Positions 13,561-46,451 are shown, counted from the stretch's first letter. The stretch is DNA of 64,000 nt from Pelagomonas calceolata (GCA_918797485.1 CAKKNE010000001.1:1736001-1800000), one strand, 5' to 3'. Notes: generated by a model from the letters alone, not told the origin. A program made the numbers and translations.

Positions 13561-16500
13561 ATGGCGCAGGGCCACCGCGACGCCCTCGCCGTCGCGCGGG
13601 GCACGGCCTGGGACCACGGCTATAGACTAGGCATGCGCATGGCCGAGGAAGCGCGGAATCCATTACCGCCGAAGCGCGCCCTCAAACCATCCACGAGAAA
13701 ACTCCTGGCCGCGTTCCCGCCAGCTGCGGAAGAAGTAGACCTAAGGAAGGAGCTCGATGGATTAAGTGACGCGGCGTTGTGGGAGGGAGCCTGCGCTCTG
13801 GCGGAAGATGCCGCGCGCGCCGACCAGCGCCGAGCGTTGGAGACTGGAGAAGAAGCCTACCCGCCGGGCGGCGCCGTCGCGGACTGGTGCCAACAATTTC
13901 TCGAGGGCACGTCCGATAATATCAAAGACGGGTGCGCGTGGACGTACCCGAAGCCGGCCACGCGCGGCAAGTCCGTCACGCTAGCTGGATGGAAAGGTTT
14001 GCGGCTGGAACCGCTACGAGCTTTGTCATTAGCCCTGGGCGACTCGCTGACCGCCGCAGATCTCTCGCAGACGTCCCTGACGGACAATGACGTCCAGGCG
14101 TTCTGTGCTCGGCTCTTCGCGTTACGAACCTTGAAGATGAGGGACTGCGAGAACGTCACGAACCAGTCCTGCATGAAGATCTCGCAGTGTATCCACGAGT
14201 GCCTCACGCAGTTAGATGTGTCGGGTTGTACGCAATTAAATAGTGACGCGTGTGGTTGGCTTGGTGGGATAGTAGGTGTGGGAGCGGCGAAGTGCCACAA
14301 GCTACTCTCGTTAGACATCTCGCGGTGCCCCCTGGTCAAGGACGACGCTCTGGCGAACTTGGCCCAGGGCTGTAAAAGGCTGCAAATGCTATCCGTCGCG
14401 AAATGTGAACGAGTGACGGACGCGGGTGTTATCTCACTCTCAAAGGGCTGTGCTTCCTTGAAGATTCTCGACGTGTCCGACTGCCAACTCGTGGGCGACA
14501 AGGCCTTCCGGTCGTTGGGGTTCCGGTGCCACCGTATGACAACGGTACTCGCGCCGCGAGCTGGTTTGCTGAAAAACACTTCGATAAGAGCCCTAGCGCA
14601 GGGCTGCCCCGGGTTGACCTGCCTCGACGTGGCCGGCGCGCAACACTTGAGTGAGTCGGTCTTCGGGGAACTGTGCTCCGGAGCGCTGGGGATGCGTTAT
14701 TTGAACGTCACTGGGTGTGAGGAGGTCACGTCGTCTGGTTTGAAGGCCTTGATCAAGGGCAAGTCTTTACTGAAAGGCGCCGGCACCGTCGTGGAAGCGC
14801 GGGCGTTCTTTGGGTTCTGTCCTCGGGAAGATGCTACTTCTGTGGAGCTGACCGAGGCCCAGCAACTCCTCGAGGAAAGGTCTTGTCGGGAGATCGTGGC
14901 CTACTTCCGAGCCTATCGGAGACGTTGTAAGGCCTCGGACGCGCGCGTGGAGTTGAGGCTGCACGGCGCGTCGCGCAAAATCGCAAGGAAGTGCATGGCG
15001 TGGCTTAGGAGGAGACGCCAGGCCAACAAGGAACGACTTAAACGAAGAGAATTCTACACGCGGGAACTCCAGCGGTTCTGGCGGGGCTACTGTGGACGGA
15101 GGGATATATGGAACGCGAAGGAGTATCAGCGCTTACTTAAGTTGCACACGAACCAGGTGATCGGCTTCCAGGCGTGCTACCGGGGCTATAAGATAAGATT
15201 GGTGGATCCCGCCGGGTGTCTGCCTGCTATTAGAAGACTAAGAGCGCAACTCAAGAAGTACCGACGAGATGTTGCTTCTACCAAAATACAAGCTGCTGGT
15301 AGGGGTGTACGCGCTCGCAGAAAGGCCTTAGTTATGTCTCAAATAAAGCTGAGGAATGAGAGGGACGAGCGCGTCGCCGCGGCGATTATTCAGTCCATAC
15401 TACGAGCTTTGCACGCTAGACATGAAGTCATACGACTCCGACTACGACGGGAGCGGTTGGCGGCCTTGCATGATCATGCCGCGCGCGTCGTCACCAAATT
15501 CATGAAATGGGCGGGCGGCCAGTCGTTGATGGCTCGTTTACAGGCCATCATGGAGCGCAAACGACGACTGCAAGAAGGAGCGTCGCTCGTCATGGAGCGG
15601 TGCACGCGCGGATTGTTCGGGAGGCAACGGGCTCGACGTAGGAGGAAGTTCATGGCGATGCTCAACGCGCAAGTGACGGTCATCCAGAAGTGTTATAGAG
15701 GTTCTAGGGTGATGGACTGGCGGAATCTGCGCATGAATCATATTGCGCGACATGTCTATGCGCGTCGCGACTTCGAGCAGGCGCAGCGAGCTCTGAACCG
15801 ACAGAAGAAGTTCGAGGCGTGGCAGGCTGAGTTGGCCAAGGATTCTTGTAGCGATTCGGATGGCGACGCGGGTGGCGAGCTGGGTGCCGAGTGGGTGGAA
15901 CGGCGGAATCTCGACGGTGGGCTCGTGTGGGTGCACAACGAGACGGGCGAGATCGTCACGGTGGATCCGCGCACGGATCCGGTCGACGCGGAGCTGATCG
16001 GTTGTAGCGTGCGCGTGTTCTGGCCGCTCGAGGAGCAGTGGTTCGAAGGGGTGTTGGCTCGCTTCCATAGGCGTAGAAGGAAGTACCGAGTAGAATATAT
16101 AGATGGGGACCACGAGTGGATCGACGTGGATGAGGCGGCGGACCGGTTGCAGCTGTACGACGCTTCCGGTTCGTGGTCTGATTTCAATGTGGCTGTCCGG
16201 CCTGCTTTGGCCGAGAGACAAAATAAGCGGGCCGAGAAGGCGGATATTAAGGTTAGGGCGCGGAGACTGGAGGAGGAGACGCGCGCGTGGACTGTATTAC
16301 CTGAGAAAGAAAGTGATGACGAGTATGACGACGACGACGACGAGGCGGCGCTGGAGCGCGCGCGGGCGAAGATGGAGGTGGCGAAGGTCGGGAAACGCGA
16401 AAGGTGGACCAACTCCCTCACGGGGGAGATTCGCTTCCTGGGACAGGAGGCGGCGTTCTGGATGGAGAGTCGCGACGCGGACAAGAACTTCTGTGCGAAC

Positions 16501-17354
16501 GCGGCGTCCTTTCTGGCGCGTCGCTGGCGTCGCCGGTGGCGGCGAGTCGACGCGGGGTCCCCAACGCAGGTTTCGAGCACGGAGAGACAGGGGAAAGAGT
16601 TTACTACGATCCCCGGTTCGCCAAGGATACGGACGTGCCGAATGTGCGCCGCTGGAAGCTCGAATGCCTCAACGCGCTGCGGCCCGCCGTTTACCTTGGT
16701 GCAGGTCTCGTGGAAGCGTGGGATACGGCCGCGGAAGGCGCGCGCGGCAAGAAGGCCCGGCAAGAGACGCTCAAACGCGTGCTCAAGAACGCCAAGACTT
16801 TTGTCAGGGACTTGTCGTCGGAGGTTCTGCGGGCCAAGGAGCTCTGGTCAGAGGAGGACTTCGCGGCCGACGCCGAGCTGGTGTACGCGGCCCACACTCT
16901 GCATCGTCTAAACGAGCTGAAGGTCGTAGCGGAGGCCGAGCAGGAGAAGGGCCTCGAGGCGAAACGAAAACTTATCCGGGAAGCCAAGCGCTTCCAGGGC
17001 GTCTGGTGCCGGGCCTGCCGCCACAAGTGCATGGACCAGCAGGCGACGCACTGTCCTACTTGTGGAGTGCGCTTCACGTCCAAGGGTGTCATCGCGGTCG
17101 GCGACATCGGTTCCGAGAACTTTCAGGAGCAGACGCGGGAGTCGCGCGCGTCGCTGGCGGATCGACTGGCGGAGCGCGCGTCGCTGGAGAGCCGCCCGGG
17201 GACGGCCGGACTCATCGAGGCGCCCGCAGAAGAAGTGCAGCCGCAGCCGTCGGTCACGTTCTCGCTGGAGACGGACGAGTCGTCGAACCCGCTGCAGCGG
17301 TCGTCCATCGAGTCGTCGTACACGTATGGGTCGGAGAGCGTGTCCCAGGAGTAA
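13561..17354 (+). CDS. LRR (FBXL/AMN1-type) + IQ motifs + WW + Tudor-like + WW + Zn-knuckle protein (exons 13561-16492, 16570-17354)
   Basis: Cys-containing LRRs (LDVSGC, LDISRC); IQxxxRG motifs; VRVFWP..WFEG..Y.VEY.DGD; intron removal completes the WW-like NF|CFEHGETGERVYYDPR. Confidence 0.8.
16493..16569 (+). other. Spliceosomal intron, GT-AG, 77 bp, GCGTCC at +12
   Basis: gtgcgaacgcggcgtcc...ccaacgcag; excision joins the two ORFs in frame. Confidence 0.8.
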
Positions 17355-17381
17355 ATCGCATGTTTGTCTGAGAATATGTAC

Positions 17382-18130
17382 TTATGCGTCCGGCGGTTCG
17401 CGGGCGCGGAGCACTGCTCGCGCGTCTCGCATTTCGTGCTCAATCCCCGTTGTGATGGGGTGTGCGCCGCCTAGCACGCGCCGCGCCGTCCGTGCCGTAT
17501 CCTCGAGCATCGTCACGGCCTCGCGGAGATCATCGAGCGTGGCGCCGTCGTCCCTCCAGAGCGACTGCGCGTAATTCCGCCGCAACTTTAGCGTGAGTTC
17601 ATGACTCTCGCCGATAGCACGCCGCGCCACGGGCATCGTTTTGCGCAGAAACGCCTTGGCTTCCTTGAAGCGCCGTAATTCGTTAAGGGATATCGCATAG
17701 TTGCTGGCTGCTATTGCGGTGTTCTCATGTTCTTCGCCATGGAGCTTCAGACGTCCGGAGTATATGTCTCGTTCCATGCTTAGGGCCTTCTCCATGTTAC
17801 CAAGCTCTCCATATGTGATCGCAAGATTGGTTTGAGCGGTGAGCATGGCGTGTTCCGATCCACCCAGGCGGCGCTCCATGGACAGCTCGGCCTCTCGCAC
17901 GGACAACGCGGTCTTGTGGTGTTTTGCGGCGGATAGACCGGTCCCCAGCTGTGTGATCGCGTCACGCCGAGCCCAGTCCGTCTCTGGCCGACCCACGTAC
18001 GTCTTCCAACACGCCCACCCGAGCGCGCATCGGACGACGCCGTGGTACTCTTGCTCGCACAGACTGCACGCATACCATCGCTTGAACCTCTCATTCTTGG
18101 CCTTGCCGTCCAAGTTGTTCTCCTCGGCCT
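17382..18130 (-). pseudogene. 5'-truncated member of a RING-variant/TPR (kinesin-light-chain-like repeat) family
   Basis: CSLCEQEYHGVVRCALGWACWKTYVGRPE; RRLGGSEH, HGEEH and RRVLGGAHP repeats; paralogous to 28015-28340. Confidence 0.7.
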
Positions 18131-18214
18131 TTCGGACCTGATCATCCGAATTGGACGTATCTTCCGCGCGAGCTGACTGCGGCGCGCGAGAAGCTCGCCA
18201 GCTTCGACACGTAA
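18131..18214 (+). pseudogene. 3'-terminal remnant of a second TPR-family paralog on the opposite strand
   Basis: Reads FGPDHPNWTYLPRELTAAREKLASFDT*, resembling the family C-terminus LGGAHP..MRDARAVL. Confidence 0.5.
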
Positions 18215-18230
18215 GAAACATTACAACAAA

Positions 18231-19709
18231 CTAGTCATCATCCGCCGGCAGCTCGAGCCCGAGCTCGTTGAGCAATAACGCCGCCGCGCCGGGCCCCGCC
18301 CCGTCCTGCGCCTCGACGCTCTCCAACAAATTCTTCACGAGGTTGAAGTCGACGTCGACGGGCGCATCATCATCATCGGTAGGCCGGTCGAAGGACTGCG
18401 CCATTTCGGTGGTGGCGAGCTCGGCCTCGAGCTGGGCCGCATACACATCATCCTCTTCCACTTCGTCGTCCGAGTCCGGCCCGTCCACGGCGACGGCGGT
18501 AGCATGCGCTCCGGCCGCGTCGCGGAGCCCCCGGAGGACGTCCATGACTTCGGCGTCCGGCGGACGCGCCGGCGCGGCCTCGCCCCGTAGCAACGCCGCG
18601 ACCGCTTCACCATCGACGGCCACCGGTTGCATCGTCTCCTCCTCATTATCTTCCTCGAGGAAATCGTGCACACCACTTACCACATCATTTGGAGTCGCGA
18701 CCGCAGAACACTTCCGCTCCAGCGTCTCCTGGTCTACTTGCAACCACGACGCGTCGTCCACGTCAGTCTCCGCCGGTTGCAGCGTGTCGCTCTTCAATAA
18801 TTCCCGTTCACGAGCCGAGGGCGCCTTCCTTATTATATCAAGTCCCGCCGCGAGCGCCGCGCCGATGTCGTCCGTCGACGCACTCAGCCGCGCGTAGGAT
18901 GCCTTTGAGAGTCTTACAATACCCTCCGTCGTGGACTTGGACGAAGGAGCTCGCCGCGGCGCCTTGGCCGCGGCGGGCCCGAGCAATCGAGGAGCCCTTC
19001 GAAAAACGCGCCACGCATGTGAAGGCATAGACACCACGACGTTCTGGCGCCGCCCCAGCACACACGTTTGAGCGCCTTCCTTTAACGACCGCTCGCGTCG
19101 CCTTAAAGCTGATGTTGCTTCCCTCGAGGCCGCGTTGTCCCTCGAAGAACAACAGAGCCCCAGACCTTTCTGAAGGGGTAACGGCCCGCCCGGTTCATCC
19201 AATACCACAGCAATACTACCAGCAACGAGCCAGGTCCGCCCCACGGCACTCTCCGGTTCGAGCCAATCGGGCAGGTGATCGGCCGCGTCGACGAGCAGGA
19301 ACTCCCCATCACTATCGGTCACGCGGCAGGCGACGCGCTCCATTCTTGTAAGATCTGCGAGGAGCGACACGAGGAGCCACTCGTCGTCCAAATCGCTGAT
19401 CGTGATCGACGCCGCGACGTGCGCCTTGCACTTCTGAAGTGAGGCGCAGGGGGCGCCGGCGTCGCGCCAGGCGTGAGCTCCGGACCACTCATTCATTTGT
19501 TTGGAAACGGTGTTTAGTAGTTGATCGATCGGAGCGTCGTCGAGCGGGTGCACCTCGTAGCGCACGCGGTCGTCCTCGGAGATCGGTGCGGTGCCCCTTT
19601 CTCGGAGCAGCTCGGCGGCGTCTCTGGACACGAAGGCGTCTAACGTGGGGCCGTCGCCGCCCGTTAAAGCCTGCAGGCCCTGGAGGAGCTTTTGCAGGTC
19701 CTCCTCCAT
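18231..19709 (-). CDS. ECD: Ecdysoneless/SGT1-family protein
   Basis: DDEWLLVSLL..DSDGEFLLVDAADHLPDWLEPE..RTWL; DDASWL; PVDVDFNLVKNLLES..GAGP. Confidence 0.88.
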   Translation of the reverse strand: MEEDLQKLLQGLQALTGGDGPTLDAFVSRDAAELLRERGTAPISEDDRVRYEVHPLDDAPIDQLLNTVSKQMNEWSGAHAWRDAGAPCASLQKCKAHVAASITISDLDDEWLLVSLLADLTRMERVACRVTDSDGEFLLVDAADHLPDWLEPESAVGRTWLVAGSIAVVLDEPGGPLPLQKGLGLCCSSRDNAASREATSALRRRERSLKEGAQTCVLGRRQNVVVSMPSHAWRVFRRAPRLLGPAAAKAPRRAPSSKSTTEGIVRLSKASYARLSASTDDIGAALAAGLDIIRKAPSARERELLKSDTLQPAETDVDDASWLQVDQETLERKCSAVATPNDVVSGVHDFLEEDNEEETMQPVAVDGEAVAALLRGEAAPARPPDAEVMDVLRGLRDAAGAHATAVAVDGPDSDDEVEEDDVYAAQLEAELATTEMAQSFDRPTDDDDAPVDVDFNLVKNLLESVEAQDGAGPGAAALLLNELGLELPADDD

Positions 19710-19832
19710 GGCTGCTCGTAGCGGTCGCGCTGCGGGTGCGGGAGCCGCGCGGAGGCTGGAATGTGTGCGAGATCAGCTCTGACAAGCGCTTGGGCCTCTA
19801 TACCAGCGTTTTTGCAGCTTGCCCGGCTTGGA

Positions 19833-19857
19833 GCTAGCGGTCTGTAAAGGTACTAGC
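19833..19857 (-). promoter_or_regulatory. Dyad-ended upstream motif, copy 3
   Basis: Reverse complement GCTAGTACCTTTACAGACCGCTAGC between the divergent ECD and TOP1 starts. Confidence 0.65.
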
Positions 19858-20104
19858 GACATCCGACTTGTGGGCTCGCCGCTGTGATTGCAACACAACT
19901 GCGCATCGCTGGGACCCGAGAACGCACGTAAGAGTCGCAGCGACCCCTGAGCTCCGCGGCCTGTGTGAAAAAGCGGGCCGCCGGACACCCCCGCAGCCCT
20001 ACAATCGACTTGGAGTGCCTCGCGCCCACAAGACGCCAACGCCGCGCGCCTGTGCGAAGACTGCGCCGCCGGACGTCCCGCCTGCGCCGCGAGCCGCCGC
20101 TACC

Positions 20105-22548
20105 ATGTCCGACTCGTCCAGCGACGACGACGTCCCGCTGTCCCAGCTCCAGGCGCCGGCCAAGCCCGCCGCGAAGCCCGCCGCGAAGCCCAAGCCCAAG
20201 AAGAAGCCGCCGCCGTCGCCGTCCTCGTCCGACGACAGCGACGACGAGCCCGTCAAGCCCCCGCCGAAGAAGCGCGCCAAGCCGAAACCGAAGTACAAGG
20301 AGTCTTCCGACGACGACGACTCCTCGGACAGCGACGACGAGCCCATCCAGAAGAAGCGCGCGGCCCGCAAGCCCGCGAAGCGCAAGGCCCCCGCGAAGAA
20401 GGAGCCGGCTCCGAAGCGAAGGAAATCCTCGACCGGCTCGACGGCGCGAAAGCCCAAGCAGCTCACGAAGGTCCAGCGCCTCGAAAAAGCGTTGGGCGCC
20501 TTCGAGTGGTGGAACGCGCCCGACCCGCCCGAGGGCAAGTCGTGGACGACGCTGGAACATGCCGGTGTCACGTTCGAGCCGCAATACGTCCCGCACAACG
20601 TGCCCTTAGTGTATGAGGGTCAACCTGTGAAATTAACTCCTAGACAGGAAGAGCTCGCGACGTTCTACGCGTCCATGCCCGAGGACGGGCCCCAACTCTC
20701 GGTCAAAGGTGGTCAGCGAGAAATATTCCAGAAGAACTTCTGGGACGACTTCTCGAAGGCGCTGGGCAGTTCGCACACCATCAAGAGCTTTAAAGGCTGC
20801 GACTTCACACGAATCAGTGAACATTTGGATAGGCAGAAGGCGATCCGCCGTTCCGCGTCGGACGCGGAGAAAAAAGCGACGAAGGAAATGAAGGATAAAC
20901 AATTACTCAAGTCCGGCTTTGCGTTGCTCGACGGCCACGTCGAGAAGGTCGGGAATTTTCGCATGGAGCCGCCCTCGTTGTTTCGCGGTAGAGGTAAACA
21001 TCCAAGAACGGGGGTCGTGAAGCAAAGGACGGAGCCGGATCGCGTCGCGATCAATGTGGGGCGGGATAGGGCACCTCCTAGATGTCATGAACCAGGTAGA
21101 TCTTGGTCGGACGTGCAGCACGACGACTCCGTGACTTGGTTAGCTACTTGGCGCGGAGGCGGCGTCCGTGACGTATATATGCATTCGAGTGGCGCCGCAG
21201 CGATGGCGTCGACGCGACGCGACGCCATCGACGCGACGCCATCGCCGCGACGCCATCGCCGCGACGCCATCGCCGCGACGCCGCACATAACGCGACCGCG
21301 CGCAGGCACGAGAACGTCATGAGCCAGAATAAATACGTGATGCTCGCGGCGAACTCGTCCCTGAAGGGCAAGAGCGACTTCAACAAGTTCCACAAGGCGA
21401 TGCAGTTGAAAGGGTGTATTGATAAGGTCCGAAGGGACTACCAGCGGCACCTCGACAGTTCGGATAGGCAGCTCAAGCAGCAGGCGACGACGATGTGGCT
21501 CATCGACGTCCTGGCGTTGCGCGTCGGTGGCGAGAAGAACGAGGACGAGGCGGATACCGTGGGTTGCTGCTCGCTGCGCGTCGAGCATTTTACCTTCCAC
21601 AGCGGTGGCAAGGACGTCGATCTAGAATTCTTAGGCAAAGACTCGATCCGCTTCAAGCAGTCCATCGACTTCCAGAACGTCGACAGCAACGGCCCGCGCG
21701 TCCACGCTAATTTAACGCAGTTCTGCAAGGGCAAGAGCAAGAACGAGCAGGTCTTCGATCTGATCACGCCGACGGAGCTGAACAAGCACCTGTCGTCGAT
21801 CATGCCCGGGTTAACTGCTAAAGTGTTCCGTACGTACAACGCTAGCGAGACTTTACAAAACCAGTTACCAAAAGCGGAGGACGTGAAGAAATTACCGACG
21901 CCCCAGGACAAGATCGTGGCCTACAACGAGGCCAATAGGACCGTGGCCATTCTCTGTAACCATCAACGGACCGTGTCGGCCGCGGCCGCTACCGGCTTGG
22001 AGGAGAAGGCCGATCGCCTGGAGCAATTGAAAACTCAAAGAAGGGAACTCCAGAGCTGGAAGGGTTTGTCGTCAAAAAAAATCCCCCTCCACTCCGGCGA
22101 GGATCCCTCCAAAAAAGCCGCGGAGCTCGTTGATAAAGCTAAACAAATGAAAAACGACGCGAAAACGGCCGACGAGAAAGTGGCCGCGACGAAGGCCTAC
22201 GAGAGCGCCATGGACAAGCGGCGCCAGGCGAACAAGGCCAAGCAGGCGGAAGCGCACAAGTTCAAGAATACGCCGGACGAGGACGCGATCGACAAGCGCA
22301 TCGAGATGTGGACGGAGAAGGTCAAGAAGATGGAGGTTGAGCTCAGGAACAAGGAGGAAAACAAAGAAGTTTCGTTGGGTACGTCGAAAGCCAACTACAT
22401 GGACCCCAGGATCACGGTCGCCTGGTGCAAGCGGTGTGATTTGGAGATCTCGCGGCTGTTCCCGAAGACGCTCAAGGACAAGTTCAACTGGGCCATGGGC
22501 GTCGACGGAGATTGGCGCTTCGAGGCGGCGGAGGTGAAGAAGAACTAG
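20105..22548 (+). CDS. TOP1: DNA topoisomerase I, type IB (exons 20105-21150, 21306-22548)
   Basis: WTTLEHAG, GNFRMEPPSLFRGRG, LALRVGGEK, AKVFRTYNAS, ILCNHQR and GTSKANYMDPRI motifs. Confidence 0.97.
21151..21305 (+). other. Spliceosomal intron, GC-AG, 155 bp, GCGTCC at +12, internal 14-bp tandem repeat
   Basis: gcgcggaggcggcgtcc...cgcgcag; excision gives WLATW|HENVMSQNKYV, matching TOP1. Confidence 0.85.
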
Positions 22549-22575
22549 TGGGGGCCCCACCTAAGATTATCAAAT

Positions 22576-23481
22576 TTAGACCGCGGCGGTCGCGTAGACG
22601 AAGTCGCCGGCCCGCGCCCAGTCGGGCACGACGGCGACGAGCTTCCGGCCGTCCGGAAATGCGGCGTCGAGCCGCCCGCCGGGCGCGGCGCCCTCGGGCA
22701 CCTCGAGCCGGGCCCGCTGCGTCCCCGCGTCCTTCAACAAGATGGCGGGCGTCTTGGCGAAGAGGGCCTTCCAGGCGGCCCGGGCGGGCTTCGGCCAGGC
22801 CTCGGCCCGCATCCGGTCCTTGGCGATCGCGTCATTTGACGTGGGCGTGAGCGCGCCATTCCGGACGACGCCGAGCGCCTCAACGACATCGCCCGCCTCC
22901 AGGGTCGCCTCCTCGGCCAGCAAGTTGCTCGTGTGCCTCTTGTTTCGGATTTGCACGTGGCACGACTCGCCGTGGCGCTGGAGGAAGGCCTCGAGCAGCG
23001 GCGAGACCCTCTTGACGACCGGCCGTGAGATGGCGTGGTCGGCGCTCGACCCGTTCGTGCGCGTGACCTCCTGCGTTGATATTGACTCGTCCCGCGCCGT
23101 CGCGTCCTTGTCCAGTTTGTACCCGTAGCTGCGTTCCCCGCTCCAAAACTCGGGCCACCGCGCGTCGGCGGCGTTCACGCGGATCTGCGCGCCGGTATCG
23201 TCCGTGAGGAAGAAGTCGACGGCCTGGGTCTCGCAGAGATCTTCACTGATGCGCCACCCGGCTGCCTCTTCACTGTCCCCGAGGAAGTACCACTTGATGA
23301 CGACCTTGTAGTAGACGCACGGCCTCCCAGATATAGGCGAAACGAGCGTGGCCCCGGCGGGCGCGCAGCGGCCGACGACCTTGGCCACGCTTCCGTCCGT
23401 TGCCTGTCGGGGCGCCACGCCGTCGAAGCGCTGCAGGACGGCCTCGATCTTTTGGGCTCCGGTCGAGAAGGAGCAGCCCAT
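22576..23481 (-). CDS. GIDE-like domain protein with an N-terminal MGC acylation motif
   Basis: LVSPISGRPCVYY..DFFLTDDTG..IRV..EEATLEAGDVVEALG; start taken at MGCSFS. Confidence 0.55.
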   Translation of the reverse strand: MGCSFSTGAQKIEAVLQRFDGVAPRQATDGSVAKVVGRCAPAGATLVSPISGRPCVYYKVVIKWYFLGDSEEAAGWRISEDLCETQAVDFFLTDDTGAQIRVNAADARWPEFWSGERSYGYKLDKDATARDESISTQEVTRTNGSSADHAISRPVVKRVSPLLEAFLQRHGESCHVQIRNKRHTSNLLAEEATLEAGDVVEALGVVRNGALTPTSNDAIAKDRMRAEAWPKPARAAWKALFAKTPAILLKDAGTQRARLEVPEGAAPGGRLDAAFPDGRKLVAVVPDWARAGDFVYATAAV

Positions 23482-24416
23482 GGTTTTTGTGCTGCCCCAA
23501 CAGATGCACACGAAGAGCAGAGCAATTTGCGCGCAGAGCCAATCTTTGCTCAGGCTCGGTGTTCGGGTTTGCCGCCGGTGATCGGGGTCCTGAAGCGCGA
23601 CGCCTAGGCGTGCCGGAAGCGCCCTACCCTTCCCCGGCGAGCGCCCCGACAACCGCCAGCACGGCCGGTCTCGACGCGCGGGGCCATCTCGCGGGGCCGG
23701 TCCGCACAAAAAAAGCTCCCAGACGTTGAACAGAAACGCCGTTGCCACGGGCCGCGGGCGCCTCGGCACGCGCCGGACTCGCACCGAGGACGGGGAACCC
23801 TGGCACTAACTCTAAGGGCGTCCCGGGGAGCCCATAACCCGAACCCGCGCTGGCGCCGAAAAGGACGTCCCAAGCGTCCAGTCAAGTCTCCGAAGACTGG
23901 CCGTAGAATGGTTGTAGAGGGGCTCACTCGGCGTGTTACTCAGCTTGCTTCAGCATCAAATTTACACGCTTTGCCAAACTTTCAAACCAAGGTGCAAAAC
24001 GTGAGCCAGCGTCCCATTTGGCGCCGCGCCCCAGCACTTCTCTCGGAGGTTTAGAGGCCGCCATCTCTCTAAAATCGCGCGCGCGGCACGCGTCGAGCGC
24101 TCAGCGAGGGCTAACACAACATTTGAAGCGTCAGAGCCGCGCGGTCCCGCGCCGCGGCGGAGCGGGGCGCCAAGGAGCTCCTAGCACCCCGATCCGCGCC
24201 GCGCGCCGCGACCGCGGGCGACGCGCGGCGGCGGCGCGCGCGCCGGCCTCGGAAACGGGCGGAAACACCATCAGCGCGACGCCCTTCCCCACGATTGAAT
24301 CTGATACTTGTTACGTGTTCGACGGCGCGTTCCCCGGGTGGAACATCAGAGTCCCCATCGGGGTCGACTGCGCGAAGATCACGGTCCCGAGCGACTCCCG
24401 CCTAAGCGGCATTATT

Positions 24417-24481
24417 GCACACCTCCCGCGTCCGTCCTTTGCCCCCGCGCCCCGCGAAACGCTGAGACGCGGCGCGCGCAG
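24417..24481 (+). other. Intron GC-AG, 65 bp, GCGTCC at +12
   Basis: gcacacctcccgcgtcc...cgcgcag. Confidence 0.65.
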
Positions 24482-24535
24482 GTCGAAGGCACGAACACGG
24501 AGGTCGTCAACGAAGGCCAGCTTTGGAAGATCACC

Positions 24536-24600
24536 GCGCGCCTCCCGCGTCCGTCGCTTTTTGCTCTCCGAGGGCCTTCAATCACCGCGCCGCATCGCAG
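24536..24600 (+). other. Intron GC-AG, 65 bp, GCGTCC at +12
   Basis: gcgcgcctcccgcgtcc...catcgcag. Confidence 0.65.
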
Positions 24601-24675
24601 GACGAGTCATCAGCTGCCGGAACTAAGATCACGAACACCGGCACCGAAAGCGACGGCAGCCCCGTCCAAATCGGA

Positions 24676-24734
24676 GCGCGCCCCCTGCGTCCCTCCGCCT
24701 CCGACGGTCTCGACGACGCCTCCCTCGCGCGCAG
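24676..24734 (+). other. Intron GC-AG, 59 bp, GCGTCC at +12
   Basis: gcgcgccccctgcgtcc...cgcgcag. Confidence 0.65.
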
Positions 24735-24791
24735 GTCTATTCGGCTACGACCGAGGTCACGGTGAGCGACCCGGGCAAAGCGGAGATCAAC

Positions 24792-24849
24792 GTGCGCGAC
24801 CCGCGTCCATTGCGCCCGCCCGCACGAACGAAGGAACTACGAAACGCAG
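24792..24849 (+). other. Intron GT-AG, 58 bp, GCGTCC at +12
   Basis: gtgcgcgacccgcgtcc...aaacgcag. Confidence 0.7.
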
Positions 24850-25119
24850 GTCCGTGGATTCCAAACCATCTTCGACTGCTACGGCACGCCCGTGGAGTTG
24901 GTCCCTGGCGACGTTGGTTGTTGTTACCGGCTTAGCACTGGACGACTGATAGCTGGTAGCTTTCTTGATTGGATTGGATTTGGATGCCCCTCAGGCTAGT
25001 CGTGAAGGGCTCCGCAGACCAGGAAACACGCCTCGCCAGCGGTCCCCCCACAGCCAACACTGTCCTAGGGCCCCTTATGGCTCCCGCTCGCGAGGCGCGT
25101 AAGACGTTCTTATAACGCC

Positions 25120-27269
25120 CTAGTTCCCCCGCCGCTTGCGGTTCCCCGTCCGCTTCTTCTTCCCGGACAGCCCGGCCGCGATGGCCGCGTCGCGCTCGGC
25201 CTTGGCCTTCTCGTCCTTGGCCTTGCGCTCGTCGGCCCTAGACTTCGCGTCGAGCTTCTGGGCGTCCTTGCTGCTGATGTCGCCGCCCTGGGCCCCCGTG
25301 AACTTGCCCTTGTTTTTGCGGCCGCGCTTGTTGTAGGACCGTTGTTTTTTCGCGATCCAGCGCTCCGGATCGGGCGGCTTCGGGTTCTTCGGGTCGTACT
25401 TGCCCTCCGATTGCAGTTTCGCCAGGTAGGCCTCGCGGCGCTTCTTCCGCCGCTTCAAAACAGCCGCCCGTTTCTTGGCCTTGGCCTCTGCCAGTTCTTC
25501 GGGCGTCTTCGCTTGCACAACAAGATTCAAGTTCTCTCGTCGCGACGTGCGCCAGGCCTTCGGGACGCCCGCTTCGAGTAACTTGTCGACGTCTTCCTGG
25601 GTCATGTCCTCATCCACCTGCGGGACTAGGTCCTGGGGCAGCTGATTGACCAATTCTTCGGCTTCGTCGGCGTCGTAAAAAGCTGCCAGGACCGCTTTCT
25701 TGGCGATGTCTTCCGGTTCATTGCCGGGGTAGATGGCTATCGCTTCCTTGCAGCCCTCGATATCATCAAATTTCAACCTTTGGGCAGCGACCCTCAGGGC
25801 ATTATCGTCGGGCTGCACCCGTACGGTTCTCAGTAACGCCACGGCTTCATTCTTTTTACCGGCTTTGTTCAGGAGTTCGGCTCGCGTCGCGACGACGCCG
25901 GGCCTGTCGGCTAATGAAGATTCAGATAAAGCTTGGGCCGCTTCCGCGTCGCGGCCGCAGTCGTGGTGCGCTTGCGCGAGGATGAACCTTAACTTATAAT
26001 CATCAACATTCTTCGTCTTCACCGACTCCAAGGCCTGCTCGATGGCCGGGATGAGGGCCTCGGCGTCGGCGATGCGTTTCTTGGCCAGGGCTTCGGGAGA
26101 CGTGTCGTCCTCACCTGTGTGGAAATCAAAATTTCATGGTGCGTTCGTCTGCTCGATGGCGTGAAGGCTCACGAGGTCCTCAGTGGTCGCTTTCCACGCA
26201 GACCATGACCCTTCGCCTTCTTCTTCTTCTGCTGCTTCTCGGGCTGCGCGTGGACCGCGATGAGCAGTTCGGCGTCGCACTGGTCTTCTGGACTGGTGAA
26301 GGGCGTCTCCAGCGCTGCTAGGGCGTCCTGGGTTTTGCCCATGGCAAATAGAGTGCGGGCCCACAGCAGTCTTCCTAGAGCCGCATGTTTGTCACTTAGA
26401 TCACTGAAATTTGAAGCAGCATAAGGTTTCAGGCGTTTGTGCGAATCAAATAGATCGGTCTCGTCCCGTCGAGCCGCTACGAGCGTACAGGTCGCGGCGA
26501 AGCGTACCGCCGCGTCGGACGGCTTTTGTTTTAACAGTGTTTTGGCCCGTTCCACGGCTTGTCCAGAGTCACCGCTCCGCTCGAGAGCGTAAGCTAATTG
26601 CGCGGCGTATTGAGCTGTTTCATCAGTTTTCTCTTGGAGCGAGGCACCGTCTTCCTCGACCGCGCGCTCGGCACCCGACAAGGCCTTTTCTAGAGTTGCT
26701 GTAGCTTCCGTCGCCCCACACTGGGCCTCGCAGCAGCCCCGGTTGTAGGCCAACTCGTGGTGCTGCTCCGGGTCGTCCGGCGGCTTGAGCCTTGAAATAG
26801 CTTCGCGGCCCTTGCCCGCTAAGGCACACGCGGCGTAATAGTTCGCTTCGAGCTCTCGTCGGTCCGCGGCCGACCGTTTCGGCTGGTCTTCCCTCTCATC
26901 AAATAATAATGAGGCATATATATCAGCGGCCTCCGCGTAGTTGCCTTGTTTGTACAGAGTTTGGGCGCGCACGTGTGCCACGGCCTCATTATCGACCGAA
27001 GCCTGTAAAGCGCCCTCCAAATCGCCTAGCCGATACTGGCAGTAGGCCTTCACGTCCTGTAAAGCTTCGTCATCCCCACAGCACTCGAGGCCCTCCTTGC
27101 ACCGATCTAGTTTCGCAAGAGCCACGGCCTTGCACCGCTTCGCGTCGGCGTCCTCGCCGTCGATGTTCAGCACTTCGTTGGCCTTCTTGAGGATTTTCGA
27201 GAACTTCTGGGCCTTGCAGGCCTTCTCGAGGTCCTCTCGGAGCTTCGCGAGCCGCTCGGCATCGGCCAT
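25120..27269 (-). CDS. SRP72: Signal recognition particle subunit SRP72 (exons 27269-26210, 26114-25120)
   Basis: N-terminal TPRs (KAYCQYRL, AQTLYKQG, ELAYNRGC); RNA-binding PKPPDPERWI.K..RS..GAQG. Confidence 0.9.
26115..26209 (-). mobile_element. Shortened family-1 introner intron, GT-AG, 95 bp
   Basis: TIRs CTGTGTGGAAATCAA (26115) / TTTCCACGCAG (26201); TSD eroded; excision gives KAKG|EDDTSPE in frame. Confidence 0.85.
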
Positions 27270-27538
27270 TGTTGTGTGCAGAGGGCGACGACACTAATGG
27301 TGTCGCGGTCGCTCCTCTGCGTGTTCTGCGGTGCTCGCGGCGGCGATGGCGTACCGCGGCGCTGCTTTTGCAGCCTCGCTCTCACGGCGGCGAGGGGCTT
27401 GCACTGGCGGCGCGCTGGACACACAGATGCAAGCGCTGCTCTGCGCTGCTCCTGTGGTGCTGTGCGGCTGCCACGGCCGTGTTGTTGCTCTCTACTTGCG
27501 CAGCGGGCTGAGTTGCAATGCCCGCAAGCCTGGCGCTT

Positions 27539-27562
27539 GCTAGTGTCTTACATGCCGCTAGC
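27539..27562 (+). promoter_or_regulatory. Dyad-ended upstream motif, copy 4
   Basis: GCTAGTGTCTTACATGCCGCTAGC between divergent starts at 27269 and 27780. Confidence 0.7.
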
Positions 27563-27779
27563 TCGGCACTCATCCATTTATTATAGCGCCGTCAGTTGCG
27601 CGACTCACGCCCGACCCGCGTTTCAGAGACTCGCGCCGCCGTCGCGAAGCCGCCGCCGCGCGTAACCGTCTTATTCCGCGACCGCCCCGCTCGATATTTG
27701 CCAAGGTCACTGAGAGACCACAAACTTGCCCGCCGCCGCCGACGACCCGGCGCCGCGTAGCTTAGTCACAGATTCAACC

Positions 27780-28013
27780 ATGAGCTCCTCCGCCGGCGTC
27801 TCCGAGCTCATGGACGCGGAAAAGAAGGCCTCGACCGTCGTCGCCGAGGCGCGCGCCGCGCGGTCCGACCGCCTCAAGGCCGCCAAGGCCGAGGCCGGCG
27901 CGGCCGTCGACGACCTGCGCGCCGCCCGCGAGTCCGAGCACGCGCTCACGACGTCGTCCGACAGCGACGCGAAGGAGGCGCAGGCCATCGCCGCGACGGC
28001 CGACGGCGAGATC
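27780..28013 (+). pseudogene. V-ATPase subunit G, 3'-truncated
   Basis: MSSSAGVSELMDAEKKASTVVAEARAARSDRLKAAKAEA is a typical subunit G N-terminus; broken after 78 codons. Confidence 0.7.
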
Positions 28014-28014
28014 C

Positions 28015-28340
28015 ATCGCGGTCGAGAAGTGCGCCGAGGACGTGAAGGGCCAGACGTGCTTCATCTGCACCCAGGCATTGCATTGGAAGACGAAGGAGGG
28101 CCTCGTGCGCGGATGTTCGTGCCGCGGGACGGCTGGTTTCGTCCACGTGTCGTGCTTGGCGGAGCAGGCGAAGATTTTGGTCGCGGAGGCCGAGGAGAAC
28201 AATTTGGGTGTCAAGGCGTTTAATCAGAGGTGGAATCGGTGGGCCATTTGTGGTCTGTGTGAGCAACGGTACCACGGCGTCGTAATGAACGCACTCGGGT
28301 GGGCGTGCTGGAAGATGTACGTGGGCCGGCCGGAGGACCA
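28015..28340 (+). pseudogene. Internal fragment of a RING-variant/TPR family gene
   Basis: CFICTQALHWKTKEGLVRGCSCRGTAGFVHVSCL (RING-CH-like); ALGWACWK.YVGRPE shared with 17382-18130. Confidence 0.75.
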
Positions 28341-28421
28341 CGGGAGACGGTGCGCAAATCAAATTTCACGGCGCCTCCACGCCATCGAGGCGACGTCTAT
28401 TCGATGGCGTTTTGCGCACAG
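28340..28421 (+). mobile_element. Family-1 introner remnant at a chimeric junction
   Basis: gtgcgcaaatcaaatttcacggcgc..cacgccatcga..tcgatggcg..tttgcgcacag; eroded TSD acgggaga vs gccggcga. Confidence 0.7.
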
Positions 28422-28793: not shown

Positions 28794-28832
28794 ACTCATC
28801 GTCGCTCGCCAATAATTTCACAACCACAACTA

Positions 28833-29413: not shown

Positions 29414-29436
29414 GCTAGTGTCTTACGGCCGCTAGC
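29414..29436 (+). promoter_or_regulatory. Dyad-ended upstream motif, copy 5
   Basis: GCTAGTGTCTTACGGCCGCTAGC, ~207 bp upstream of the minus-strand ATG at 29207. Confidence 0.65.
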
Positions 29437-29499: not shown

Positions 29500-30405
<906 letters not shown>

Positions 30406-31525: not shown

Positions 31526-32173
31526 ATGAGGAGATCAAGGCAACGCTGCGCGGCCCTCGTCGTGATAACCTGCGCGAGCGCCTACCTCCAACCCAGATCA
31601 ACAAAAAGAACAACAGCACTGCACGCGAAAGAACCTTTACTGAGAATAGGTCATGGGTATGACATCCACCGCCTCGACACGCGAGAAGAGGCCGGCCAGC
31701 CCATCGTCATCGCGGGCGTGCGCTTTGATGGGAGCGAAGGACACGCCCCAGATTTCGAATTAGGCTGCGTGGCACATTCGGATGGAGACGTCATCTACCA
31801 TTCTGTCGTCGATGCCATCCTCGGAGCACTGACGATGCCCGACATCGGCTGCCTCTTTCCCGACAACGATCCCCGATTGAAGGGCGCCGATTCGTCGATC
31901 TTCATGGAGGAGGCCTACAAGCGCATGACCGATAGAGGGTATCGGCTGGGCAACTGCGACGTCACGCTAATCTGCCAAAAACCAAGAGTGAACGTGGATG
32001 CGGTGGGCGGCGGTTTAGTGAAGGAGAAGATGGTCGGGAACGTGGCGGAGTTGCTGCACACTGATGTTAGTATGGTCAACGTGAAGGCTCGAACGCACGA
32101 GAAAGTCGACTCCGTCGGCGAATGCCGGGCGATCGAGTGCCACGTCGTGCTCACGCTGGAGCGAGAGGACTAA
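31526..32173 (+). CDS. ispF: 2-C-methyl-D-erythritol 2,4-cyclodiphosphate synthase, plastid-targeted
   Basis: LRIGHGYDIHRL, AHSDGDV..H..DAILGAL, DIG..FPD and NVKARTHEKV motifs; bipartite leader. Confidence 0.95.
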   Translation: MRRSRQRCAALVVITCASAYLQPRSTKRTTALHAKEPLLRIGHGYDIHRLDTREEAGQPIVIAGVRFDGSEGHAPDFELGCVAHSDGDVIYHSVVDAILGALTMPDIGCLFPDNDPRLKGADSSIFMEEAYKRMTDRGYRLGNCDVTLICQKPRVNVDAVGGGLVKEKMVGNVAELLHTDVSMVNVKARTHEKVDSVGECRAIECHVVLTLERED

Positions 32174-32302
32174 GTAGGTTACTCTAGTTTGTCAAACGGC
32201 GGCGTAGTGGTGGCGCACGCTGTCGCCGCCGCGCTCGCTCGCGAAAACCGAGTATTGACTGGCTCCAGGCTCCAGGTTACTCGGGAGGGGTAGGGGGAGT
32301 AC

Positions 32303-34009
32303 TCAGGAGCGGAACGGCCGCCGCATGACGGACGCCGGCCGCACTTTCGATAGCCTCCCAAGGACGTCCTCGAAGTCCGCGAAGGGGTCCTCTCTGATTG
32401 GAGATCTAGACCGGCTCCGCGCCACCTCCGGGATCGCGTACGGACTCAAATCGAGGTTGACGACCTCGATCGGCGTCGGTTCTAATGCCAAAGGCGCCTT
32501 CGCGCGCGGTTCCGGGATGACCTGGGGGTTTGGATTGCACGCCACGACCGTGCCGTCCTTCATTACTAATTTACAAGCGTCCTCGGGCGTGGCACATAAA
32601 ACCTCGAGCGCGTACGTGTTAAACCCATCCAGGTCTGGTCTTCTTTCACTTTGTAACAAGGCCACGCCCGTCTCCGCAGAGATCTGCCTTACGACTCTCT
32701 CTTCACTAACTTCACAGGGGCACTCCTTGACCAAAACCTGCCGTGACGTAATAGCTCGAGGACCTCTAGGAGCGTGAGCAAACCGCAGCGACCCACAAGG
32801 CCCCGTCTGGCAGTCCGCGTCCTTCATTTTCGCCCGTTGCGCGGCCTGGTAAGCCTTCAGCGCGTCCCGCACCTTCATGTCACTGTAAGAATCCGCATCC
32901 TCGACGGCGCCGGACATGGCTCTCGCGCGAGCTTGACAGGCCTCGAGCTGCCTCTTGACATCATTCAACTCCGCTGTGACGCGCGCGGTGTCGTCCTTCG
33001 CGCGCATGACCTCTTGCTTCGTCTCCCGAATGTTCCGATTCGCTTGCAACTGCTGCTGTCTGGCCTGCTCCTGGACCCTTTCGACCGGAGTCTTGGGGCG
33101 CGGCGACGCCGGCGCGAAGCTTGGCGTCGACCGCTGCACGTTGCTTGTCGACGGGCGCGCACCACCGCCGCTCGAGACACGCGCGGGACCACTCGAAGAG
33201 ACGCGCGGCACACCGCCGCCACCACCCGAGGAGACGCGCGCCGCCTTGCGCTGTCTTGATCCTAACGTGAAGGCGGCTCCTGACTCAGGATCGACGTGAA
33301 CGGTGTCAGACGCGGCCTGAGCCGAGCGAGAAGCGTAGGCCGCATCCAATTCGCGCGCTTGCGCCTGCAGCTCCAGATCATGTTGAGCTCTCGCTCTGGA
33401 AGCGGCATCTCGAGACAAGCGCTGGAAGTCCGCGAGGGCCTTCTCCGCCTTCTGGGCTCGGGTGTCGCCGCCGCGCTCCGCGTCCCGAATCGCCTTCTGG
33501 GCCTGCTCGAGCTGCTGCTTCATCCAGATGCGCTCCTCATGTAAAGCCGCGGGCGTGAGCGGTGTGAGTCCTAAGAAGCCCTGTTGGCCGTCCTCGCTCA
33601 ACCGGCCCGCGGCGTCCGACGAGGGTCCAAAATACTGGTCCCACTCCTTGCAGATCTTTTCTAACTCGAGTAATCTTCCAGCGTGTTGCGACTTGCCTTC
33701 GTTCAAGGAACAAGCGACCGCTCGCACTTCCCTCGCGAGGTCGTGGACGTAGCGCCCACAAGCCACTGGCGTCGTATACTTCCCCGACGCCTTCGCCTCG
33801 TAAAAGTCGCAGACCTTGATGAGGTCCACGACCTTCGCATCGCCTAGGTCGCCCTCCCTGAAGCTGATGCCACTCGCGACCGGTCTTGGCGCCTTGCGCG
33901 GATAATCCTGCTCGTACACGGCGATCGGCTCCCAGGCCTTCTTGTTGCGGCCGGCGGGGACCCAGGTCGGGCGGACGTTCTCGACGTCCCGCATCGGCGT
34001 TCTCGTCAT
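32303..34009 (-). CDS. Hypothetical coiled-coil protein
   Basis: Long ORF with heptad-rich and Ser/Gly low-complexity segments. Confidence 0.6.
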   Translation of the reverse strand: MTRTPMRDVENVRPTWVPAGRNKKAWEPIAVYEQDYPRKAPRPVASGISFREGDLGDAKVVDLIKVCDFYEAKASGKYTTPVACGRYVHDLAREVRAVACSLNEGKSQHAGRLLELEKICKEWDQYFGPSSDAAGRLSEDGQQGFLGLTPLTPAALHEERIWMKQQLEQAQKAIRDAERGGDTRAQKAEKALADFQRLSRDAASRARAQHDLELQAQARELDAAYASRSAQAASDTVHVDPESGAAFTLGSRQRKAARVSSGGGGGVPRVSSSGPARVSSGGGARPSTSNVQRSTPSFAPASPRPKTPVERVQEQARQQQLQANRNIRETKQEVMRAKDDTARVTAELNDVKRQLEACQARARAMSGAVEDADSYSDMKVRDALKAYQAAQRAKMKDADCQTGPCGSLRFAHAPRGPRAITSRQVLVKECPCEVSEERVVRQISAETGVALLQSERRPDLDGFNTYALEVLCATPEDACKLVMKDGTVVACNPNPQVIPEPRAKAPLALEPTPIEVVNLDLSPYAIPEVARSRSRSPIREDPFADFEDVLGRLSKVRPASVMRRPFRS

Positions 34010-44311: not shown

Positions 44312-45436
44312 ATGGCCCACCGCGCGCACCTCCGCCGCGCCGCGGCCAACGCCGGGCCCAACTCATCGTGCGTCCGGCGTCCTTCCTCCCGCGCGCCGTC
44401 GACGCGCCACCACCATCGACGCGACGCCACCGCGCCGCGCCGTCGACGCGACGCGCCGCGCGCCATCGACGCGCCACACCACCGCAGGCTGAATCGCCCG
44501 CCGCCGCCGCCGCCGCGGCCGCCTCCATTGGCACACGACCCCGCCGTCCTCAAGACGCTGCCGCGCACGGGCAAGCGCGGCGCGCCCCAGGCCTTCCCGC
44601 ACCTCCTCTTCATGATGCTCGAAAGGGAGGAGGGCCGCCACATCAACTGGTGTTCCGATGGATTGAGCTTTGAGGTGCCGGACAAGGACGTCTTCGTCCG
44701 CGAGACGCTCCCGCGCTACTTCCGCCACAGCCGCTTCGCGTCGTTCCAGCGCCAGCTCAACCTCTACGGCTTCAAGAAAGTAAGTGATGGCGAGCTGCGC
44801 TTCGAGCACCCCGACTTCCTGCGGGACGCTCCACAAAGGGTCACGAAGGTGCTGCGAGCGCCGCCGCAACCGCAGAAGCCGCGGCCCAAGAAAAAGAAGG
44901 TCGTCCGTAAACCACCGTCATCGGACGACGACTATTCGGATGGAGACAAGACGCCGTCGCCGAAACGGTCGCGCTGCGACGTTTCCGCTTTATTTGGTAG
45001 AGACGAAGCTACTACGGCCGAGGCGCTATTTTCATTGAGCGCGCCGGCGAGTCCCGCCGGTACTGGCTCGGTCGGCTTCCCGTCGCCGGACGTGACGCTA
45101 CGCAAGGCCACGGAGAAGCTCCAGAATCAACCGCCGCCCGCGCCGCCGATCGCGACGCCGTCGCCGGCGTCGTCCTTCGGGTCGCGGACCAACCCGCGCG
45201 CGCCGCCGCCCTCGCCCCATGGTTTTGGCGCGGCGCTGGCCTGCGTCCGCGCGGCGTCGGGGTCGCTCGACTCGGACGAACTGCGGGACCCGTTGTTACG
45301 TCGCGGCCTCTCGGACGGCTCCGACGGCTGGCAGCGCGCCCTGGACGCCGGGCCCGCGCCGCCCTCGGAGCCGCTCTGGGCCCTCGATACGCCGACGGGC
45401 GGCTTCGGGGCCACGTTCTTCGGCGACGACGCCTGA
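44312..45436 (+). CDS. Heat-shock-factor (HSF) DNA-binding domain protein (likely exons 44312-44367, 44488-45436)
   Basis: FPHLLFMML..INW..DG.SF..LPRYFRHSRFASFQRQLNLYGFKK..FEHPDF. Confidence 0.9.
   Translation: MAHRAHLRRAAANAGPNSSCVRRPSSRAPSTRHHHRRDATAPRRRRDAPRAIDAPHHRRLNRPPPPPPRPPPLAHDPAVLKTLPRTGKRGAPQAFPHLLFMMLEREEGRHINWCSDGLSFEVPDKDVFVRETLPRYFRHSRFASFQRQLNLYGFKKVSDGELRFEHPDFLRDAPQRVTKVLRAPPQPQKPRPKKKKVVRKPPSSDDDYSDGDKTPSPKRSRCDVSALFGRDEATTAEALFSLSAPASPAGTGSVGFPSPDVTLRKATEKLQNQPPPAPPIATPSPASSFGSRTNPRAPPPSPHGFGAALACVRAASGSLDSDELRDPLLRRGLSDGSDGWQRALDAGPAPPSEPLWALDTPTGGFGATFFGDDA
44368..44487 (+). other. Probable in-frame intron, GT-AG, 120 bp, GCGTCC at +10
   Basis: gtgcgtccggcgtcc..ccatcgacgcg (twice)..accgcag; not forced by the reading frame. 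Confidence 0.6.
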
Positions 45437-45591: not shown

Positions 45592-45615
45592 CCTAGCGTA
45601 GATAAGCCCACTAGC
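45592..45615 (-). promoter_or_regulatory. Variant of the dyad-ended upstream motif
   Basis: Reverse complement GCTAGTGGGCTTATCTACGCTAGG, 173 bp upstream of the ATG at 45788. Confidence 0.45.
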
Positions 45616-45787
45616 GTAGATAAACTGAGAAGCTCAGCAGGAGTTGGCCTGAACGCCTCGTACATTGCCCAAATTGTTCTTCAGAAGCATAAGTGCTGCC
45701 TAGGGGTCCTACCTTCACGACGCAGCCGAAAAAGCGACGCAAATCGCCGTATAAACCTCGAAACGCAAGGAATCAGAAGACAGAGTC

Positions 45788-46451
45788 ATGATGCTCCGCG
45801 CGTTCTTGTTCCTCGCGCCCTCAGCGATGGCCCTCCAGCCCATGAAGCCCGTGAGCTACGACGCCTTCGAGCTGGCCGCAGCGGAAGCGCTGAAAGACGA
45901 ATTGCGGGCCAACTACCAGAAGCGCGCGGCGCGCGAGCGGTCCATGGCCGCCCAGGCCGCCGACGCGCTCGACGCGGCGCAGACCTTGGACCAGATCGAG
46001 GCCGCGCTGCCCTTGGCCGACGCGGCGGGCCTGCCGGCCGACGCGCCGGAGGTCCTGGCGGCGATCGCGCGCCGCGACCGGGCCCGGGCGACGGAGGAGC
46101 GCAACGCCGTAGCAACGCGGCGTCCCGAATCGACGCGTCGACGGCGTCACTGACGGCTCGCGAACGCAGGTGCTCGAGGAAATCAACAAGGCCGCGGACT
46201 GCCACGTCGAGAGCTGCGACGTCGAATTGCTCGCGGGGCTATTGGACGAGGCGCGGTCGCTCGGCGTCGACGCGTCGAATATCCTGGAAAAGGGCCGCGA
46301 GCTCGCCGCCGTCCAGGGCGACCGCGCGGCGAACGTGGCTGCTGCTTTGATCTTCAGCGACGAGGCCCACGCCATCTACGACCCCCTGGCGCCGCCGCGG
46401 AACAAGGCGCCGATCCTGGAGGACATCTCCGTCCTGGGCCCTGACCTCTAG
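45788..46451 (+). CDS. Hypothetical signal-peptide (likely plastid) helical protein (exons 45788-46108, 46170-46451)
   Basis: Signal peptide; intron removal joins ERNA|VLEEINKAAD. Confidence 0.65.
46109..46169 (+). other. Intron GT-AG, 61 bp, GCGTCC at +12
   Basis: gtagcaacgcggcgtcc..cactgac..cgaacgcag; excision joins the two ORFs. Confidence 0.8.

Follow-up and report, generated by a model that had tools for sequence, protein, structure and literature searches.

A candidate splice signal of probable transposon origin downstream of the 5' splice sites of older introns in Pelagomonas calceolata

Many older introns of the pelagophyte Pelagomonas calceolata carry, a short and nearly constant distance behind the 5' splice site, the word C-N-GCGTYY. 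The reading we favour, with moderate confidence and on sequence grounds, is that this word is the domesticated left terminal inverted repeat (TIR) of an introner, an intron-forming transposon, kept as a downstream 5' splice signal and probably read by U6 small nuclear RNA (snRNA). The analysis covered a window of 64,000 nucleotides (GCA_918797485.1 CAKKNE010000001.1:1736001-1800000; positions are counted from its first letter), which holds nine introns with the word, and a set of metagenome loci, which adds ten. One protein encoded in the window shows 100% identity to a protein of P. calceolata. Across these 19 introns the word lies at intron positions +10..+17 with the offset shifted by -2 to +1, its start falling at +10 in 13, at +9 in 4, and at +8 and +11 in one each.

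An initial annotation of the window had described the hexamer GCGTCC in nine introns, at +12 in seven, at +11 in the one beginning at 30329 and at +10 in the one beginning at 44368. Donors and offsets are present in the sequence as described, as are the four GC donors among the nine and the CGCAG end common to all, and removal of the introns leaves open frames. The hexamer is thus real and position-fixed, but the conserved word is longer, as a C stands two bases ahead of the hexamer in 19/19 introns. In the loci, where this base was not selected for, it occurs in 9/9 matches at +11 and +12 against a background of 0.35, and in 11 of 13 distinct introns once the matches judged unconvincing are added back. 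The donors, previously called highly degenerate, are not random and follow a GYGCG trend (G at +3 in 15/19, C at +4 in 15/19, G at +5 in 14/19). GCGTCC occurs 121 times in the window on both strands, or 0.00095 per base, and is absent from 1445 bases of intron interior, so that its presence in all four window introns with independently fixed donors is not due to chance; each window intron offers only 2-5 alternative GY donors that are in frame and no more than 30 nt away. The introns have U2-type GT/GC...AG ends, as attested by RNA joints for 16493 and 21151 and by spliced proteins for 46109, and none of the nine window donors matches the U12-type consensus RTATCC, as given in PMC3033335. Branch-like sites in the nine comprise CTGAC in one and TCGAC at -18 to -22 in four more, with none in the other four; TCGAC may be a relaxed branch point derived from the introner interior hairpin.

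Four of the nine window donors are fixed independently of the motif, two by RNA and two by protein, in agreement with the initial annotation, and the remaining five were placed mainly by frame. Reads of three raw polyA runs from one sample were mapped on positions 12500-32400. The GT-AG intron 16493..16569 of an LRR/Tudor gene (plus strand; word 16502-16509, that is +10..+17) is supported by 41, 52 and 78 junction reads in the three runs and by a contig, and the GC-AG intron 21151..21305 of topoisomerase I (plus strand; word 21160-21167), which separates two Pfam halves, by 54, 31 and 72 reads joining 21149 to 21305 with three letters of slack. On the minus strand, the GT-AG intron 30100..30329 (word 30321-30314) follows codon 2 of a ubiquitin-fusion gene with a Pfam ubiquitin match; its joint is not among the RNA joints listed, and it was placed by the protein start MQ-IFVK that its removal restores. 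The GT-AG intron 46109..46169 (plus strand; word 46118-46125; CTGAC branch-like site at -17) is spliced out in five proteins of relatives (P0005, P0006, P0008, P0009 and P0010) and read through in three others.

The inferred GT-AG intron 44368..44487 of an HSF gene (plus strand; word 44375-44382, hexamer at +10) is in frame and 120 nt long, and its acceptor was found by the motif-blind gene model described below. Two strain read-through proteins, P0040 and P0127, match its 5' end and diverge inside it, one of them entering it in a different frame. Three inferred GC-AG introns, 24417..24481 (word 24426-24433), 24536..24600 (word 24545-24552) and 24676..24734 (word 24685-24692), and an inferred GT-AG intron, 24792..24849 (word 24801-24808), all on the plus strand, were placed by frame restoration only. 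The gene is almost silent at 24.4-24.85 kb, with RNA depth under 0.5. The placement of its GC donors by the initial annotation does restore the frame; for the first of them the public model P0002 instead takes as donor the GT inside the motif, whereupon the frame is lost. This gene (24240-24998) matches no Pfam family and only one database entry, and its introns have 17-20 nt in common at their 5' ends, which may stem from exon-intron duplication. A motif-blind gene model, partly trained on these introns and placing donors poorly, found 8/9 window acceptors, missing that of 24536..24600.

For replication, 121 metagenome loci were retrieved by a promoter-like word of the window, and 120 of them were used (280,680 bases), L165 being dropped as a duplicate of L103. 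A gene model was rewarded for GCGTYY at one offset per run, which yielded 6 introns at +12, 3 at +11, 2 at +13, 2 at +10 and 1 at +14, none at offsets 8, 9 and 16, and 3, 3, 3 and 5 at offsets 6, 15, 18 and 21; of the 14 rows at these last four offsets, 8 are +12 introns displaced by one or more full codons, the other 6 being different introns. All introns at +11 and +12 and one of the two at +13 were kept, giving ten, while L118 (+10, +13), L181 (+10) and L076:5581 (+14) were left out as unconvincing. Two of the ten come from L081 and L090, orthologues from two pelagomonad lineages with 82-85% exon identity. Neither lineage has the intron of the other, and outgroup proteins lack both, so both junctions are fixed without use of the motif; one donor is GC, followed by GCGTCC at +12, and the other GT, followed by GCGTTT at +12. 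Nine related proteins run continuously across the position of the first of these introns, and the well-aligning ones likewise across the second. Within the gene a distance of 66 nt separates the two introns, which suggests recent independent intron gain or loss.

The origin of the word is best seen against the young introners of the same genome. Huff et al. 2016 reportedly described pelagophyte introners as elements with TIRs and target-site duplications (TSDs), similar to miniature inverted-repeat transposable elements. The resident family has the TIR CTGTGTGGAAA, the left TIR CTGTGTGG and an 8-bp TSD. The opening dinucleotide of the TSD, GT or GC, serves as the donor, so the TIR begins at +9 and the bases around the donor are arbitrary. 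Young copies have a TSD identity of 66/72 and insert in both orientations, with either arm first. One at 9971..10189 has a perfect 8-bp TSD on both sides and the TIR CTGTGTGGAAA and is readable as an intron from both strands, and one at 964..1120 (plus strand) has a TSD of 7/8. C-N-GCGTYY equals the first eight bases of the left TIR CTGTGTGG with changes and in the same register, and the ubiquitin hexamer at +11 stands in the exact register of an 8-bp TSD. The 3' exon begins with GY in 16/19 motif introns and exon position -1 is G in only 5/19, as for TSD-derived donors. Interiors of 9/19 motif introns resemble young-introner interiors above genomic controls (p<=0.05), as short remnants; among them are the topoisomerase I intron, with tandem remnants of the interior hairpin (p 0.02), and the ubiquitin intron (p 0.04). 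No such match was found in the other 10/19. The shared interiors would fit decayed descendants of introners, not present members, and the line between these introns and the introner family, outside which they had first been placed, is not a clean one. As to a matching right TIR and TSD, a test allowing one indel gave a faint TSD trace (p 0.014) and the right ends mirror the first 5-6 TIR positions, but position 7, facing the first Y, is complementary in 1/19 and there is no matching right arm. No young family of the form CTGCGTCC...GGACGCAG with right arm and TSD was found in the 345 kb of window and loci. A set of old introns at +11 was picked by having GYGT and is therefore no test of GYGT. 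All in all, the word is likely a left-TIR remnant in origin.

Two window introns stand between the young copies and the old introns. The intron 26115..26209 (minus strand), confirmed by RNA junction reads, is a decayed introner with a TSD of 4/8, the left arm CTGCGTGG at +9 and an intact right arm. The putative intron 55013..55092 (minus strand) belongs to an Rce1-like protease gene, with the Pfam Rce1-like match starting at residue 2 of its 3' exon; one base inserted in its intronic TSD copy has produced a GTGCG donor and an arm at +10 (CCGCGCGG), which shows how the +12 register can arise. A second introner family (window 5520-5626 and 28354-28421; L108, L119, L144) has arms GTGC(A/G)CAAATCAAA and ends TTTGCRCACAG, and has an interior hairpin in common with the main family. 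At L121:2751-2984 a young introner with a perfect TSD lies just within the 3' end of an apparent older intron, which ends in ACGCAG 23 nt beyond it, a possible nested insertion.

The same resemblance could have arisen with causality reversed: the host would already have possessed the splice signal, recognised by another snRNA or by an RNA-binding protein associated with U1 or the B complex, and the introner would have owed its success to a chance likeness of its TIR to that signal. This is an unlikely course of events, though not a negligible one. It would suit the presence of the word in two lineages whose exons differ by 15-18% and the ten motif introns free of introner-interior matches, as well as the imperfect pairing to typical U6 and the equal rank of other snRNA windows described below. 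It sits poorly with the exact TIR register, including a C that was not selected for, with the GY-starting 3' exons, the non-G at -1 and the faint TSD trace, and with the restriction of both orthologue-fixed introns to a single lineage.

If the word is an introner remnant, its state of preservation sets it apart from its surroundings. In the nine window introns TSD identity has fallen to 13/63, and the word is intact in 9/9; the columns after it are mixed, and it is always on the donor side. Young elements insert either way, yet the word is always donor-side, which points to RNA rather than DNA as the level at which it acts. A neutral relic would be expected to fade alongside the TSD, the right arm and the following columns, and the intact word amid their decay disfavours it. 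Judging from this conservation, an auxiliary function in splicing is likely. That the word is simply the left TIR, still undecayed, of an introner family now extinct (CNGCGTCC, TSD of 9 bp) appears improbable: the TIR register, the interior remnants, the TSD trace and the mirroring of the first five TIR positions at the right ends would all follow from it, while the flanks of the word are at chance (TSD 39/133 against a null of 34.9, with mixed later columns), opposite the first Y the right arm has a complementary base in just one intron, the 345 kb contain no intact copy, and the word marks weak donors. The initial annotation had posed signal and relic as alternatives. Each has support, and the choice is a false one, because the TIR register, the interior remnants in 9/19 and the faint TSD trace indicate that TIR origin and selection likely both hold.

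The link to weak donors emerges from introns that lack the word. The motif-blind model placed 30 well-scored introns in the loci. By our reading about 18 of them are introners, whether young or decayed; the word is present in 6-7, and 5 belong to neither class. Two of these five look false and three are credible (L121, L127 and L106), with Pfam continuity over the junctions of L121 and L127. The claim that all introns outside the introner family carry the motif thus fails beyond the window. All three motif-less old introns have GTRA donors, against 1/19 motif introns (Fisher p 0.0026, in a small and partly unconfirmed set), and predicted duplexes with a non-pelagophyte U1 average -2.3 kcal/mol for donors of motif introns against -3.4 for those of young introners. 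This bears out the earlier proposal of a downstream signal retained on the 5' side only and linked to weak donors; the suggested affinity for GC donors does not hold, since the 19 motif introns comprise 13 GT and 6 GC donors. The RNA-confirmed intron 26209-26115 carries GG in place of YY and the second introner family is without GYGT, so the word is not required for splicing, and we infer that it is a helper rather than a requirement.

These observations can be joined in a scheme that is conditional from its second step on. An introner inserts, and the start of its TSD (GT or GC) becomes the donor, with the TIR from +9. With age, the intronic TSD copy would be overwritten towards GYGCG, often with one additional base (register +12), and interior and right arm would decay while the left arm shifts from CTGTGTGG to CNGCGTYY; alternatively, the starting point may have been an extinct sister family already nearer to CNGCGTYY. 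The word would be retained as it aids weak donors, and introns gaining a canonical GTRA donor could dispense with it. The reader would be U6, within the extended U6/5' splice-site helix of the B complex; this is the least certain step, and even with the rest of the scheme granted it falls somewhat short of probable. Variation between C and U where a G would face them, with G and U fixed elsewhere, predicts a partner strand like 5'-GGACGY-3'.

Pairing with U6 was evaluated on the 14 nt before the donor-pairing box of a typical non-pelagophyte U6, from which the pelagophyte U6 may differ. GCGUCC ranks 45 of 4096 hexamers by duplex with this segment and 5 of 384 with equal GC, and GCGUUU ranks 126. 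The mean duplex is -5.5 kcal/mol for intron positions +7..+20 against -3.4 for +23..+36, and -1.7 for young introners. Of 326 snRNA windows, 9 rank the word as high as the U6 segment does. A scan of the 64-kb window with Rfam returned no snRNA and one chance match, and a viral sequence collection gave no match to an snRNA motif and none to two pelagophyte patterns; its 53 matches to a 15-mer were taken as chance phage matches and left unused. Twenty U6 loci were retrieved from eukaryotic contamination of bacterial genomes, and none was recognised as pelagophyte. The contaminated entries (L054-L073) are public bacterial genome bins with eukaryotic gene clusters for snRNA, signal recognition particle RNA, tRNA and 5S RNA. 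The U6 segment of the extended helix is the best-supported predicted reader. A protein reader is nearly as likely, given that the pairing needs a bulge, that a full complement is lacking and that the U6 is non-pelagophyte. More specifically, a U6 co-adapted together with a matching U4 might read a transposon-derived second donor signal and take donor choice partly off U1, a proposal we advance tentatively and regard as possible rather than probable.

Pairing of the word with the intron's own 3' end (RCGCAG), in the manner of euglenid end joining, is a very improbable alternative. The first three bases of the hexamer can pair in 17-19 of the 19 introns and the T in 14/19, in TIR register, and yet the conserved YY stay unpaired (pairing in 1 and 7 of 19), pairing with the last 12 nt has a predicted probability that never exceeds 0.23 and lies under 0.05 in 15/19, and two introns ending in GCACAG break the pair without compensation. 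End-to-end pairing leaves the YY unexplained and was rejected.

A number of results weigh against a domesticated, U6-read TIR. As to placement, 5/9 window donors have none that is independent of the motif, and orthologues fix two of the ten loci introns, the other eight being model predictions. The offset-scan count at +12 (6) is modestly above those at the remaining offsets (0-5), and in an annotation-free test of the loci GT stood at the +12 distance before 25/506 GCGTCC sites, with no peak and with codon periodicity dominant; a filtered count, made post hoc, is weak (6/66 at +12 against 0-5 elsewhere). No Pfam domain match spans the junctions of the tested motif introns in the loci. The frame-based donors, the public donor inside the motif and this negative test would also be expected if donors had been misplaced in this GC-rich genome and the word were an artefact of that. 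That explanation is hardly credible and largely refuted: all six donors fixed blind to the motif (two by RNA, two by protein, two by orthologues) have the word, and the intron interiors contain no hexamer. As to origin, the plain TSD tests on the 19 introns were not significant (p 0.10 and 0.20), and the one allowing an indel (53 against 43.1+-4.1) was the third tried; the intermediate intron 55092 is without the T and YY of the word; and the hairpins common to the interiors could serve as a second signal instead of marking ancestry. As to the reader, GCGUCU ranks only 520 on the U6 segment, and GUGUGG of young introners pairs poorly (rank 2929). The word pairs with typical U6 only with a bulge, and no full complement was found in 12 U6 genes of other eukaryotes. 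By human numbering the pairing would also lie 3-4 nt out of register.

The word may bear on a puzzle of pelagophyte splicing. In Aureococcus 39.6% of introns are GC-AG, an excess termed an enigma by Iwata and Gotoh (PMC3033335) and restated as a puzzle in PMC3167603, and over 45% of the information for intron recognition is unexplained, the largest share among 61 species; its U1 has a canonical 5' end (PMC3033335). P. calceolata has about 14% GC-AG introns, attributed to GC content (Sibbald et al.). Iwata and Gotoh scored donors from -3 to +6 only (PMC3033335), so a signal at +10..+17 would have gone unseen. If shared with Aureococcus, the word is a candidate for the missing recognition information, and it could help explain the tolerance of many GC-starting introns; reading by a co-adapted U6, if true, would account for the 14-40% of GC-AG introns together with the record "information deficit". 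The proposal would also show how introners become domesticated, offering a testable path by which the end of a transposon turns into a splice signal of the host. Gene prediction would gain too: provided that the frame-based reading is correct, the public model wrongly sets one of its donors inside the word. A full-text literature search, with a coverage that did not extend to Huff et al. 2016, possibly relevant to novelty, found no paper describing the word.

Two further features of the window were noted. A 23-nt word (GCTAGTGTCTTACA-N3-CGCTAG, with at most 2 mismatches) lies just upstream of many genes, with window sites at 79, 5162, 27539, 29414, 39667, 43998, 56033 and 57337, and is likely a pelagophyte promoter element; it occurs in about 3500 metagenome stretches and keeps its orthologous place in a related lineage (L084/L124). 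The stretches 17385-18230 and 27784-28506 are two diverged, inverted copies of a high-copy RINGv/TPR gene family with many cross-mapping reads.

Several known systems resemble parts of the proposal. TIA-1 U-tracts and G-triplets are downstream intronic enhancers that help weak donors. They share with the word that aid comes from inside the intron, but are of low complexity and loosely placed, whereas the word is single and confined to a 4-nt range. In Entamoeba, co-evolution of snRNA and donor has likewise coupled a lineage-specific 5' signal to an snRNA change, which concerns U1 at the normal donor window (bioRxiv 10.1101/2022.06.08.495308), in contrast to a signal about 10 nt downstream in P. 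calceolata. In human structures U6 5' of the donor-pairing box contacts the intron beyond +6, with nucleotides placed to at least +13, SNU23 at +9/+10 and PRP38 at +13 (PMC10943123, PMC11208138), and in spliced-leader RNAs complementarity in this extended helix is strong, whereas cis introns vary case by case (PMC11170887). There, too, U6 upstream of the box meets the intron downstream of +6; the helix of cis introns is, as far as these sources describe it, protein-stabilised and intron-specific, whereas here a fixed word would furnish the complementarity in many introns. Nonconventional introns of euglenids use short TIR-derived motifs at a fixed distance from the ends as a splicing code (PMC11282704, PMC11170887, PMC12501133), but have non-canonical ends paired end to end, unlike the GY-AG introns of P. 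calceolata with their unpaired YY. To these systems belong the pelagophyte introners themselves, of which 956 putative ones with GT/GC donors and TIRs are reported in P. calceolata (Guerin et al. 2022, PMC9481584) and families are listed without sequences (Gozashti et al. 2022, PMC9860276); the available text of neither proposes a splicing role for the TIR. They have in common with the motif introns a GT or GC donor from the TSD, an AG from the element and a TIR just inside the donor, and differ in being young, repeated and two-armed, whereas the motif introns are single-copy, old and left with a modified left arm only.

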